Below are positions 15,013 to 20,409 of a DNA stretch of 38,179 nucleotides, piece by piece. The stretch lies in the NCBI GenBank assembly GCA_051382335.1, contig JBBCAX010000184.1, forward strand, positions 1-38,179, given 5' to 3'. The translations under genes were made by a program, and so were the position numbers. This stretch comes from Deltaproteobacteria bacterium TL4. GTDB taxonomy: Bacteria; SAR324; NAC60-12. The notes under the pieces are model-generated. The model ran no database searches. It was not told the DNA's origin and saw only the letters and a list, made by a program, of their open reading frames with translations. Position 1 is the first letter of the stretch. Each line of letters starts with the position of its first letter.

Positions 15013-15731
15013 CATAGGTGTTCGTGGTTTTAAATCATAATAAATTCAATTGGCTTCTTGTTGAAAAGATGACATTCTGGATATTTTGCTAACACAACCC
15101 CAGGAGGCCTGGTATGAACAAAGAAGAGAGTCATCTCAAACAAATCAAGCAAGAGATTGCCGCAATTATCCCGGCCAAAGATGGACGAAGTCCAGGTTCT
15201 AACTAAAAAAAATTGGTGATCAACTCCTATGTTGTCGGGCCATCGGATTTTGGCATCCTACTGAATATCAGTACCATTGGTATCTTACCAATTTGACAGC
15301 TCTTGCGAAAATTATGTATCCACTCTACCGTTTGAGATGGCAAATTGAATTGATTTTTAAAGGGATACAGCAATCACTTAAGGCCAACCGACTCACCTCT
15401 AACAATTCCAACATCATTGAATCTTTATTGCTCGCTTCTATGGCTGCTCAGCTCATTTCCATGGTTATTTTAAGAGTGGGTTCGGCGAAGCTAAACAAAG
15501 AGCAACAATTGGCCTTCTCCTTTCAACGAATCTCAAAAATTGCTGTTGTACTGGCAAATGATTTTGTGAACTTTTTTTTACAGTCCACTAAACGAGCTTT
15601 TGACGAGCTTGTTGAAAAAATCAGGCTCTTTGCAAAAGAACTGTTTGATCCAAACTATCATCATCGGGAAACTTCACTGATGCGCATAAATAGAGAACTC
15701 GCTGGAGGAACATAAATCCCGAACACCTATG
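15013..15731 (+). mobile_element. Internally deleted IS4-family element
   Basis: Perfect 12-bp terminal IRs CATAGGTGTTCG (15013-15024) / CGAACACCTATG (15720-15731), 16/18 when extended; 719 bp total; encloses transposase fragments. Confidence 0.85.
15114..15715 (+). pseudogene. IS4-family transposase remnant
   Basis: GGAGG + ATG at 15114 giving a short N-terminal stub, then C-terminal part WYLTNL..YRLRWQIELIFK (YREK motif); most of the DDE core is missing. Confidence 0.85.
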
Positions 15732-15748
15732 CTGTCCGTGTATATCCG

Positions 15749-15868
15749 GGAGATCATGAAAATCCAACAAAACGACTCGCTGAAGAACTGGGAATAACTC
15801 ATTATTTTGCGGAGATTTTGCCTGAGGACAAAGCCAAACTTATCTGCCTTTTGATAAAGCATCGATAA
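15749..15868 (+). pseudogene. Fragment of heavy-metal P1B-type ATPase
   Basis: Manual translation GDHENPTKRLAEELGITHYFAEILPEDKAKLI matches the (T/S)GD...LGI...AE.LPEDK P-domain segment. Confidence 0.7.
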
Positions 15869-16011
15869 TTGATTAGACGGGGTCTTGACACACTGACCTT
15901 AAAAAGGGTACAGCCGATAAGACCTTACTTCCCGCATCGCTTCCGATAAAAGACACCATAGCAAAATAACCAGACGGACAGGATGGAGATCAACACGGAC
16001 AAGGGGAGATT

Positions 16012-16042
16012 ATTGTTGCGGAGAAAAATACTCCGCAACAAT
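16012..16042 (-). terminator. Stem-loop downstream of rplL (probable terminator)
   Basis: ATTGTTGCGGAG-7 nt-CTCCGCAACAAT perfect 12-bp stem; no strong U tract. Confidence 0.65.
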
Positions 16043-16109
16043 GAACTTTGGTGATTTGAGGGCATCAAGGACACACCCCAAATTGAAGAGGAATAAAGGT
16101 AAGAAAAAA

Positions 16110-16496
16110 CTATTTAATTTCAACACCTGCGCCAGCTTCTTCAAGCTTCTTTTTGATTTCTTCAGCTTCCGCTCTGGGGATGCCTTCTTTTACCGCTTTA
16201 GGTGCCGCCTCAACGAAATCTTTCGCTTCTTTTAAACCCAAACCCGTGATTGCGCGAACTTCTTTAATCACATTGATTTTCTTCTCTCCAATTGTCGCGA
16301 GAATGACGTCAAATTCGGTTTGTTCCACAGCAGCTTCAGACTCTCCACCGCCTCCGGCAGCAGGAGCAACAGCGACGGTAGCCGCAGCAGCACTAACACC
16401 AAATTTTGCTTCGAGTTCTTTTACCATTTCAGAGAGTTCGAGTACTGACATGCTTGAGATAAACTCAATCACTTGCTCTTTTGTGATCTCAGCCAT
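16110..16496 (-). CDS. rplL: 50S ribosomal protein L7/L12
   Basis: [33 protein letters not shown]. Confidence 0.99.
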
Positions 16497-16519: not shown

Positions 16520-17044
16520 TTAATTTTTAGATTCTGCAATTGCAGACAATACACGTAGAAATTTAGCAGGCACTTCGCTAAGCGTTCTAACAAACTGGGC
16601 CGCAGGAGCTTGCAATAGAAATAAGAATTTAACAAGAAGCTCGTCCCTGGAAGGAAGTTTTGCTAAGGCTTGAACTTCACTCTCTGTTAATAGGGAAGTT
16701 CGTCCCTGAGTTGATAGTATTCCTCCCTGTATGACTAAGGAGGTCTTTTTCTTGGCAAAATCCGTCAGTACTTTCGCTTGCCCTACCGGATCCTGACTTG
16801 CCACAATTGCACGTGTGTTCACTAATTGATCGTTTAAGCCTTCAAACGGTGTACCTTTTGAAGCAATTTTAGCTAAGGTGTTTTTGATCACCTTCATCTT
16901 GGATGATGACTCGCTGAGTTTTTTGCGTAACTCAACAATGTCATTTGCCGTTAATCCTCGATAATCCACTAAAATCGCCGCAGAAGCGGAAGTGAAAAGT
17001 TCCTTTAATTCACCAATAAGGGCTTCTTTTGCCGTTTTATCCAC
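16520..17044 (-). CDS. rplJ: 50S ribosomal protein L10
   Basis: DYRGLT..LRKKL..KVIKNTLA..LAKLPSRDELL; GTG start after AGGATGAG. Confidence 0.98.
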   Translation of the reverse strand: MDKTAKEALIGELKELFTSASAAILVDYRGLTANDIVELRKKLSESSSKMKVIKNTLAKIASKGTPFEGLNDQLVNTRAIVASQDPVGQAKVLTDFAKKKTSLVIQGGILSTQGRTSLLTESEVQALAKLPSRDELLVKFLFLLQAPAAQFVRTLSEVPAKFLRVLSAIAESKN

Positions 17045-17624
17045 AACTCATCCTAATATGAATTAATGTGTGAAATTAAGCTCTGATTACGGTAGAGCCT
17101 ACGTTATGAATTAAAAGTAAAAAGAAGTTTACTCCCGAAACTCAACCAGTCACCCGTCACGAAATGAATATCAGCCTTCAGACATAAGGTATTAGTTTTT
17201 GATAAAACCTGTGATATCAGCATTTTTTTCAAACTAACCCACCGCTATAAGCTAAAGATCCATTAAGCGATAGTGACTAATTAAAGAATCTAGGAAGCAG
17301 AACCTCCTTCTTTCAAGCGTAAAGCTTCCGAGCGTTCTTTAAAAAATCATGCGTTGCACAATCTCAGAACTCCTTTAGGCTAAAGCTTTCTGGTTTGAAA
17401 CAGAACCCCATTTCCCCACAGAAACGCGGAATTCCGTGTCTACTCGAAACGGGTAAACCCCACTCTTTAGGTGTTTTCTCCAAGGCACACCCTGACCATA
17501 CACTGAATCCCTGAACGATGTTCTTAATGATTCATGGCTAAAAAGTGAAAAAACCTGTTTAAAGTCCTGACAGATTGAGGAAGGAAGAAGACAGCATACA
17601 CGATGGGAAAAAACGTGCGGAGAT

Positions 17625-17671
17625 GTCTCGGCAGGATGATTAAGCCCCAAGGGGCCCCTACTGTCTTCGAC
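17625..17671 (-). promoter_or_regulatory. Ribosomal protein L10 leader core (autoregulatory RNA element)
   Basis: Minus strand GTCGAAGACAGTAGG-GGCCCCTTGGGGC-TTAA-TCATCCTGCCGAGAC fits the L10-leader pattern (GAAGAC.G.AGG...TTAA...CCTGC.GAG). Confidence 0.8.
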
Positions 17672-17707
17672 AATCTTCAGTTTTGAAAATTCAGAAACAG
17701 TACTTTT

Positions 17708-18403
17708 CTAGCCTCTGATACTCTGGATATCGACTTTTAATCCAGGTCCCATGGAGGAGGTGATCGTACATTGTCTCATATAAATGCCTTTTGACGCGGG
17801 AGGCTTCAGGCGATTAATGGTCTCAACGAAAGCCCTGATATTTTCAACCAACTTAACAGGCTCAAAAGAAACTTTTCCGACAGGTGCTTGTAATATTCCG
17901 TTTTTGTCTGCACGAAACTCCACCTGCCCCGCTTTAATCATTCCAACCGTTTGCCCAATATTGGTAGTCACTGTTCCCAGTTTGGGGTTTGGCATGAGAC
18001 CTCTCGGTCCCAAAAGCCGACCAATTCGACCAACCAAGCTCATCATATCGGGACTTGCGACAACTCTGTCAAATTCAAACCATCCCCCCTGGATTTTCGT
18101 GACCAAATCTTCCGCCCCAACATAATCGGCTCCAGCTTCCCGGGCCTCCGCTTCTTTATCACCTTTAGTAAAAACCAGAACTCGAACTTCTTTCCCCAAA
18201 CCATTAGGAAGAGAGCAGGTTCCTCTAACCGTCTGATCGGCTTTTCGAGGATCAACCCCCAAGTTCAACGCAATTTCAATCGTCTCGTCAAACTTGGTAA
18301 CCTTCACATCTTTTAATAAATTGACCGCATCTGTCAAAAGATAGACTCGCGCTCTGTCAACTTTTTCATCAATTAATTTTTCTCGCTTTGTTTTCTTTTT
18401 CAT
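17708..18403 (-). CDS. rplA: 50S ribosomal protein L1
   Basis: [38 protein letters not shown]; start reassigned to ATG 18403 (MKKKTKR). Confidence 0.98.
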
Positions 18404-19790: not shown

Positions 19791-19867
19791 TGGCAGGCCA
19801 GACAGGGCTCGAACCCGTAACACTCGGATTTGGAATCCGACGCTCTACCAATTGGAGCTACTGGCCT
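19791..19867 (-). tRNA. tRNA-Trp (CCA)
   Basis: AGGCCAGTAGCTCCAATTGGTAGAGCGTCGGATT-CCA-AATCCGAGTGTTACGGGTTCGAGCCCTGTCTGGCCTGCCA. Confidence 0.97.
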
Positions 19868-19959
19868 AAACCATGTTAACCGTTGAAATCTATCCCTAGA
19901 CGCCAACCGTAACCAGGTATCCTGAGTCATCCTTGACTCAGAGTTCAGGGAAGGATCCC

Positions 19960-20109
19960 TTATTTCGTTTCTTTATGCAGAGTATGTTGACGTTCCCATT
20001 TACAATATTTACGAATTTCCATACGATTCGGTTTTAGCCGTTTATTGCGGGAAGCAAAATAATTACGCCGTTTGCACTCTGTACATTCCAACAGTATAAA
20101 ATCTCTCAT
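19960..20109 (-). CDS. rpmG: 50S ribosomal protein L33 (not in ORF track)
   Basis: Manual translation MRDFILLECTECKRRNYFASRNKRLKPNRMEIRKYCKWERQHTLHKETK (49 aa). Confidence 0.97.
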   Translation of the reverse strand: MRDFILLECTECKRRNYFASRNKRLKPNRMEIRKYCKWERQHTLHKETK

Positions 20110-20138
20110 GTTACCAAGTATCTGCTAAAATAAAAAAC

Positions 20139-20213
20139 TGGAGCCTAGGAGCAGGATTGAACTGCCGACCTCTTCCTTACCAAGGAAACGCTCTACCACT
20201 GAGCTACCTAGGC
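20139..20213 (-). tRNA. tRNA-Thr (GGT)
   Basis: GCCTAGGTAGCTCAGTGGTAGAGCGTTTCCTT-GGT-AAGGAAGAGGTCGGCAGTTCAATCCTGCTCCTAGGCTCCA. Confidence 0.97.
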
Positions 20214-20226
20214 ACAGGCGGAATCG

Positions 20227-20311
20227 TGGTGGGGAGAGAAGGAGTCGAACCTTCGAAGGCATTGCCGTCAGATTTACAGTCTGATCCCTTTGACCACTTG
20301 GGAATCTCCCC
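20227..20311 (-). tRNA. tRNA-Tyr (GTA)
   Basis: GGGGAGATTCCCAAGTGGTCAAAGGGATCAGACT-GTA-AATCTGAC..GGTTCGACTCCTTCTCTCCCCACCA, long variable arm. Confidence 0.97.
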
Positions 20312-20333
20312 ATGCTAGTAGGCTATCTCCAAA

Positions 20334-20409
20334 TGGAGCTGGCAATGGGACTTGAACCCGCAACCTGCTGATTACAAATCAGCTGCTCTACCAATTGAGC
20401 TATACCAGC
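20334..20409 (-). tRNA. tRNA-Thr (TGT)
   Basis: GCTGGTATAGCTCAATTGGTAGAGCAGCTGATT-TGT-AATCAGCAGGTTGCGGGTTCAAGTCCCATTGCCAGCTCCA. Confidence 0.97.

Follow-up and report, generated by a model that had tools for sequence, protein, structure and literature searches.

A putative MITE copy beyond the L10 leader in the rplA-rplJ spacer of a SAR324 bacterium

Introduction

The L10 leader (Rfam RF00557) lies between rplA and rplJ, and the motif described for the binding of L10(L12)4 in mRNA consists of a kink-turn, a bulged C, and an AA loop (accessible part of PMC3616713). The bacterial MITEs Correia/NEMIS, ERIC, RUP, Nezha, and IMU are, in the accessible parts of their descriptions (PMC3184786, PMC3733652, PMC10969869), intergenic elements of approximately 110-150 nt without a coding frame that share their ends with autonomous IS elements, carry a target duplication, and form a long RNA hairpin; co-transcribed hairpins belong to the description of MITEs in the first two of these sources. 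The BrickBuilt MITE of Porphyromonas gingivalis, as far as the accessible part of its report goes (PMC4596501), is also intergenic, with approximately 20 copies per genome and internal short repeats.

We analyzed a stretch of 38,179 nt, referred to here as the window, from Deltaproteobacteria bacterium TL4 (SAR324; assembly GCA_051382335.1, contig JBBCAX010000184.1, positions 1 to 38,179). Our data indicate that its rplA-rplJ spacer is a known leader together with a new mobile element of a known type, a MITE. As an L10 leader, the spacer scores above the gathering threshold, contains the kink-turn strands, bulged C, and AA loop, and has the expected position between rplA and rplJ. It differs in a terminator-like end that is very weak (-3.9 kcal/mol), in having no predicted link to the ribosome-binding site, and in the distance from the core to the start codon, which is 580 nt (core end at 17624) as compared with 82-369 nt in 28 of 29 relatives, no core being found in the 29th. 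This distance, which a preliminary description of the DNA made from the letters alone had already called unusual, is the longest among the 29 spacers with a core, while 220-370 nt is common in the order.

The repeat in the spacer shares with the MITEs named above their approximate length, ends common to autonomous IS elements, target duplication, lack of a coding frame, intergenic position, and long RNA hairpin. It differs from Correia/NEMIS, ERIC, RUP, Nezha, and IMU in its terminal repeat, in a 6-bp TANNTA-type duplication, and in arms that consist partly of short TTAG-containing repeats; furthermore, the copies of its family are old (57% identity), and the window copy is nested in a predicted host stem inside a ribosomal-protein leader. 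BrickBuilt contains a 23-nt tandem minisatellite whereas the internal repeats of the window family are short, few, and inverted, a comparison made by description rather than by sequence. In openly accessible literature on the terminal motif, SAR324 repeats, IS5-type MITEs, and rplA-rplJ repeats, which we covered by title or by the start of the abstract, no description was found.

Results

The locus and its leader

The minus strand of the window contains tRNAs, rpmG, secE, nusG, rplK, rplA, rplJ, and rplL (names read from translations). The rplA-rplJ spacer measures 663 nt, as had been reported, and the earlier view that it holds no credible ORF stands. The sole sizeable ORF on the same strand (91 aa, 17375-17650) matches no Pfam family, and we rejected it as a hidden gene. 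In a search of the spacer against Rfam, L10_leader was the only credible match (three others had E values of 2.6-9.9); besides it, no family of known large ncRNAs, introns, or riboswitches was found, in line with the preliminary description, which had recognized none of several familiar large RNAs. The 5'-most 85 nt or so of 17045-17624, the region proposed there as a large non-coding RNA, fall within this match. The features of the spacer are collected in Table 1.

Table 1. Features of the rplA-rplJ spacer and its flanking genes, by position in the window
Feature	Position	Strand	Remarks
rplA (L1)	17708..18400	-	Stop codon ends at 17708; start set at an internal ATG near 18400; longest ORF reaches 18475
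L10 leader, Rfam RF00557	17539..17688	-	45.9 bits against a gathering score of 44
L10-binding core	17624..17672	-	Kink-turn strands, bulged C, internal loop with AA; read from sequence
Pyrimidine tract	17572..17594	-	Predicted pairing with the leader's 5' purine strand (17658-17679)
Weak 7-bp hairpin and U-tract	17545..17576	-	Aligned to the terminator end of the Rfam model
Extension without conservation or further copies; contains several short hairpins	17312..17540	-	Folding at chance level
Host stem, 5' arm	17286..17311	-	Predicted 24-bp stem enclosing the MITE
Left hexamer TAATTA	17278..17283	-	Fits the family target duplication
Putative MITE copy	17149..17277		129 nt across both terminal repeats; predicted long minus-strand hairpin
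Right hexamer TGGTTG	17143..17148	-	3/6 identical to the left hexamer
Host stem, 3' arm (17143-17119), leading into a U-rich tract	17108..17143	-	Predicted from folding
Two short hairpins and rplJ ribosome-binding region	17045..17107	-	z -2.0 for 17045-17140
rplJ (L10)	16520..17044	-	174 aa; GTG start at 17044

The kink-turn, the bulged C, and the unpaired AA loop are present upstream of rplJ, and their stems can be enforced in folding. Pairing of the pyrimidine tract with the 5' purine strand constitutes a predicted alternative fold that is incompatible with the kink-turn stem, and the terminator-like hairpin at 17545-17576 is predicted to form with a probability of 0.06 or less. Forcing the L10 kink-turn left both the long hairpin described below (0.84 to 0.85) and the accessibility of the Shine-Dalgarno sequence (0.52 to 0.53) unchanged, and a relay by which the kink-turn would act on the long hairpin was rejected, constrained folding giving no response. 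Anti-Shine-Dalgarno pairing by the pyrimidine tract of the window, with pairing of this kind scored for 26 of the 29 rows, was rejected as well (-6.3 kcal/mol, p 0.78, long-range pairing probability 0.00). In these equilibrium predictions, which miss co-transcriptional effects, neither the kink-turn state nor the alternative fold could be tied to output at the terminator-like hairpin, the Shine-Dalgarno sequence, or the start region. In eight relatives (L003, L008, L010, L011, L017, L021, L022, and L027, out of the same 26 scored rows), removal of the 5' strand leaves the segment after the core with a predicted pairing to the rplJ Shine-Dalgarno region (probability 0.42-0.73), and such pairing may represent a translational switch in the phylum.

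The surroundings of the spacer gave several separate observations. Downstream of rplL there is no rpoB but an IS fragment with a stop (15030-16110, with a DDE_Tnp_1 match at 15122-15448); rpoB lies on a separate contig of the same genome (C129:35951-37414). No rpoB-like frame was recognized by eye within approximately 1 kb of rplL at the loci of the 29 relatives, and the linkage of rplJL to rpoBC looks broken across the order. On the other side, a tRNA cluster leads into rpmG and secE without an intervening tuf (19794-20409).

Conservation among relatives

We located the corresponding loci of relatives by tblastn with rplA as the query. At the orthologous site, sequence matches to the spacer were confined to the L10 core. 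The region 17045-17540 had no match at E ≤ 0.01 in 63 other genomes of the order, and the tails of 28 relatives, that is, their sequences after the core, failed to align to it. The closest L10 homologs in a protein search share 68-69% identity, those labelled SAR324 cluster bacterium share 57-61%, and the best L10 in a metagenome scan shares 56%; no relative is closer than 68-69%, and this genome is the sole one of its genus in the genome collection, so that the comparison covers longer evolutionary ranges only. Four of the 28 tails folded with a z-score of -3 or lower. Three tails (L009, L010, and L026) were tested as repeats and each proved to be single-copy in its own genome, which indicates that structured tails also arise without a repeat. 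A hairpin followed by a U-tract was scored in 8 of the 28 relatives' tails, the window's own tail lying outside that scoring.

Location of the folding signal

All 18 stem strings listed in the preliminary description are in the sequence, and its choice of strand was correct: the minus (mRNA) strand of 17045-17624 folds at -167.1 kcal/mol with a z-score of -4.05 (0 of 100 shuffles as good), and the plus strand has a z-score of -0.31. The claim that all 580 nt are densely structured fared less well. Although the region as a whole carries that signal, most of it comes from one repeat (z -6.5 alone), and once the repeat is removed the z-score is near chance (z -1.4 for the remainder, 5 of 60 shuffles as good). 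The segment 17290-17540, home of most of the listed stems, has a z-score of -0.6 (23 of 100 shuffles as good). The proposed multibranch closed by TTAAAGAA/TTCTTTAA is not the favored fold, its bases pairing instead in a long outer stem with a mean probability of 0.84. The excess of G-U pairs said to favor the mRNA strand does hold for the hairpin formed by 17311-17119.

There is no sign of anything beyond chance structure in the 230 nt of 17312-17540. A search for plasmid and phage homologs of 17290-17545 returned only chance matches of 27-28 nt, and when 24 de novo repeat-family profiles were run against the spacer at E < 0.05, the MITE family alone matched. An undescribed structured RNA or an expanded leader had been proposed for the whole region; the leader is expanded in the plain sense, and the large structured RNA finds no support, given the match to a mobile repeat, the lack of conservation in relatives, and the near-chance z-score without the repeat. 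Homologs with covariation, the mark of a novel conserved structured RNA, were found neither in the 63 genomes nor among the repeat copies.

The repeat family and its parent elements

A search of the bacterium's own genome returned weak matches to one part of the spacer. When the spacer was cut into 17 overlapping 100-nt pieces, only three matched elsewhere in this genome, all over 17125-17304. Iterated profiles gave 69 merged loci in this genome, 41 of them at E < 1e-3, and 22 near-full-length copies with a mean identity of 57%. The window copy is 53-64% identical to the 21 others, and the genes flanking the copies are unrelated (ilvBN, argB/metF, dnaB, glgC, tilS, and kinases; 40 ORFs). No covariation was detected among 17 of the 22 copies, aligned on a hand-set terminal stem, with 167 of 500 shuffles reaching the count of doubly changed pairs, and RNAalifold found no consensus fold for the copies. 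Of 15 co-oriented copies, 10 fold better on the sense strand and 6 have the element itself in sense orientation, neither bias being significant. The copies behave like a decaying palindrome.

The 16-nt terminal motif of the repeat, which the window copy retains with several substitutions, occurs in 6 of the 45 genomes of the family, the reversed control giving no match, and is present in no fewer than 117 stretches across the genome collection, many of them at contig ends. In three of these (L167, L172, and L173), the motif bounds both ends of elements of 1.6-2.1 kb with one transposase of 457-471 aa. Set against IS5-family and ISNCY transposases (NCBIfam NF033578 and NF033593; Pfam DUF772 and DDE_Tnp_1), all three contain DUF772 and score best on NF033578 (155-174 bits, E ≤ 3e-45), yet they fall under its curated cut-off of 275 bits, for which reason we call them IS5-like and do not file them as IS5. 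A search of the 445-contig assembly with a parent transposase as the query found no cognate transposase (best match 27% identity). The terminal motif was absent beside 36 of 37 transposase-like matches, the single match sitting inside a Y1 gene.

Identical 6-bp flanks (6/6) were found at L172, L151, L139, L160, and L202 and at own-genome copies on contigs C167 and C187, with L139, L160, and L202 being short elements (139-180 nt) in other taxa. The remaining listed flank pairs agree at 0-5 of 6 positions, and several of these are chance pairings. TANNTA precedes 54 of 118 distinct ends, its last A being fixed by the search pattern. The agreement of the two window hexamers equals the family mean (3.0 of 6 in 18 scored copies), and each of the three mismatched positions is an A-to-G change on the mRNA strand, with pairing kept as U-G. 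With terminal inverted repeats around a short non-coding core, dispersed copies, ends in common with autonomous IS elements, and a target duplication in the family, the 129-nt repeat is, as judged from sequence, a MITE.

Host stem and G-U asymmetry

Pairing extends approximately 24 bp past the target hexamers (17311-17286 with 17143-17119). This flank duplex has a z-score of -3.2 on the mRNA strand (2 of 200 shuffles) and 0.0 on the other strand, complementary flanks occur in only 2 of 18 copies, and the site folded without the element still has a z-score of -3.0 to -3.6; the host-stem and selection tests were chosen after the fold was seen and rest on one sequence. Because the flanks pair on the mRNA strand only, few copies have complementary flanks, and the site folds without the element, we infer from the modeled folds that the MITE inserted into the loop of an older hairpin. 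The accessibility of the ribosome-binding site is the same in folding with or without the element.

On the mRNA strand, the complete hairpin (17110-17315) reaches -69.1 kcal/mol (z -6.81), versus -30.1 kcal/mol (z -1.02) on the other. Opposed bases in the arms of the window copy comprise 13 G-U to 1 A-C on the mRNA strand, as against 78:83 in the 14 other co-oriented copies, and none of the other 21 copies has as wide a gap in folding energy between its strands (22 kcal/mol for the window copy; others: mean -1, sd 6.8). The long inverted repeats of 149 co-oriented spacers have 1184 G-U to 1146 A-C and no overall sense-strand bias. The ratio is overdispersed across spacers: the window spacer, at 19:1, is more lopsided than any other extreme listed for 121 spacers, and the opposite extremes are 2:15 and 2:11. 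The sole spacer above the window by G-U excess (C95, 28:8) contains a triplicated repeat, so its count is not independent. The G-U excess of the window copy fits either selection that keeps the hairpin folded or strand-biased mutation.

Discussion

On balance, we favor the reading that the spacer consists of the known L10 feedback leader followed by unconserved sequence with one decayed MITE copy, likely inserted in the loop of an older mRNA hairpin and probably tolerated as a self-folding sequence whose pairing is weakly selected. It starts from the observed Rfam match, dispersed copies, ends common to intact IS5-like elements, target duplications in the family, and absence of homologs. An IS5-like DDE transposase acting in trans would have inserted the element at TAATTA, approximately 100 nt upstream of rplJ, and the element would be transcribed with rplKAJL. 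Its arms would pair with each other, and the host stem and ribosome-binding site are predicted to stay as before. Under weak purifying selection, mutations that disrupt the hairpin on the mRNA strand would then be lost while G-U changes pass, and the element would gain no job of its own in this way. Feedback by L10(L12)4 would be exerted at the core, 580 nt upstream of rplJ. Several observations sit uneasily with this reading. The two hexamers of the putative target duplication at the window copy agree at only half of their positions, no better than the family mean, the assembly yielded no cognate transposase, and no empty site was seen, the nearest L10 homolog being at 68-69% identity. Furthermore, the MITE covers only approximately 135 of some 430 extra nt, and does not extend to 17312-17540, structured tails occur in relatives without a repeat, and the selection step rests on a single sequence with stem boundaries set after the fold was seen.

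We rank next, as unlikely, a fully neutral history with the same anatomy, in which C-to-T and A-to-G mutation, biased by strand in an operon under heavy transcription, would account for the G-U excess and the outer stem would be an old palindrome decaying likewise. Asymmetric deamination in transcription is established (accessible part of PMC2031905), C-to-T or A-to-G changes on the mRNA strand make up 14 of the 24 differences that separate the window copy from the family consensus, and there is an excess of G on that strand in the unique middle segment too (GC skew +0.22; 9% of 825 co-oriented spacers reach +0.2). In simulations of decay from the family consensus, used in place of the true ancestor, the observed strand difference arises in 4-12% of copies under a 3- to 5-fold transition bias, but only 1.7-4.7% of the biased simulations match both asymmetry and stability. 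Such a bias is also visible neither genome-wide nor in the other copies, as the counts above indicate, the skew at four-fold sites in the operon is mild (+0.05), and transversions are few in the window copy (5 of 24, versus 179 of 341, the latter figure being inflated by subfamily differences). Ranked closely after mutational bias, and likewise unlikely, is domestication of the MITE, a member of an undescribed IS5-like family, in the loop of the rplJ-leader hairpin: the stem of approximately 190 nt (193 nt) with its U-rich tail, paired on the mRNA strand only, would set rplJL output as a terminator-like attenuator or as a stem processed by RNase III, through which rplJL would be uncoupled from rplKA. 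The stability of the hairpin on one strand and the lopsided spacer ratio speak for a function of this kind, as does the strand gap, which 0 of 300 strand-symmetric simulations reached in each of two settings, and RNase III is reported to cut MITE-containing mRNA in the case of Correia elements (accessible part of PMC10969869). Against it, forcing the kink-turn changes neither the hairpin nor Shine-Dalgarno accessibility, the stem base is rich in A-U and G-U pairs, unlike a strong terminator, and is missing from a terminator scan, hairpins with a U-tract are confined to the minority of scored relatives' tails given above, and the opposite extremes of the G-U to A-C ratio show how overdispersed it is.

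The remaining two readings are far less probable than a weakly selected self-folding passenger. The spacer is probably not a new large RNA, and we regard a single discrete ncRNA or cis-regulatory RNA across 17045-17624 as very improbable. What recommends it is the z-score of the whole region on the mRNA strand only, the record core-to-start distance, the lack of an Rfam match past the L10 leader, and the circumstance that short-range conservation has no close relative to be judged by; the folding signal, however, is limited to the repeat and its flanks, neither the order's genomes nor the relatives' tails match the region, and promoter-like sites occur at chance (2 found versus 1.7 expected). 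Least credible of all is an origin of the hairpin as a REP/REPIN doublet, with a RAYT transposase having spread it, in place of a DDE-type MITE. The genome does contain 12 Y1_Tnp matches and many REP-like families, and some elements bounded by this terminal motif hold GTAG-type REP doublets inside (C10, C140, C25, and C107), while one adjoins a RAYT-like fragment (C315). Yet the window copy has no GTAG- or CGTC-tagged unit of 20-40 bp, its termini match DDE elements with direct target duplications, and profiles of the REP-like families gave no match to the spacer at E < 0.05.

These data suggest an IS5-like/MITE family, defined by the terminal repeat and represented in several phyla, that makes a 6-bp target duplication. 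They also remove a false lead, in that a strong folding z-score in a long leader can stem from a decayed palindromic transposon, and for long leaders a comparison with the repeats of the same organism should come first. The window copy is a clean candidate case in which to ask whether a MITE hairpin on an essential mRNA is kept folded by selection, with the 21 sister copies as a built-in control. Co-option, if true, would put a domesticated MITE in control of rplJL within one of the most constrained operons of the cell.

Additional observations

Crudely called intergenic regions of the genome are rich in repeats, 607 of 2622 holding a segment with four or more partners. A second dispersed palindromic family of approximately 200 nt has different ends (C354:9882-10143, C382:6145-6970, C285:30592-30974, and C25:20109-20873). 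The center of the window MITE (17195-17225) resembles two overlapping putative IHF-site-like motifs. A gene of the four-helix-bundle family (23S rRNA IVP) has heptamer repeats on either side (C281:22200-23200); an origin of the repeat with such genes was rejected, the single IVP gene having different heptamers at its flanks.

Elements in which MITE-type ends enclose GTAG-type REP doublets in place of the usual core, that is, a MITE shell with REP cargo, lie at C10:46907-47151, C140:23106-23290, C25:20785-20801, and C107:5215, and at L202:2187-2325 in a gammaproteobacterial genome. At C315:7940-8250 (L266), one terminal repeat directly precedes a fragment, followed by a REP-like palindrome, whose motifs suggest the C-terminal half of a RAYT-like transposase. 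In two relatives (G006 and G015), many large genes that are paralogs of one another and have a repeated N-terminal segment are preceded by the terminal motif and part of the core (L060, L065, L066, L069, L070, L072, L073, L076, and L078), and these motif sites adjoin heptamer tandem repeats and toxin-antitoxin-like small genes.
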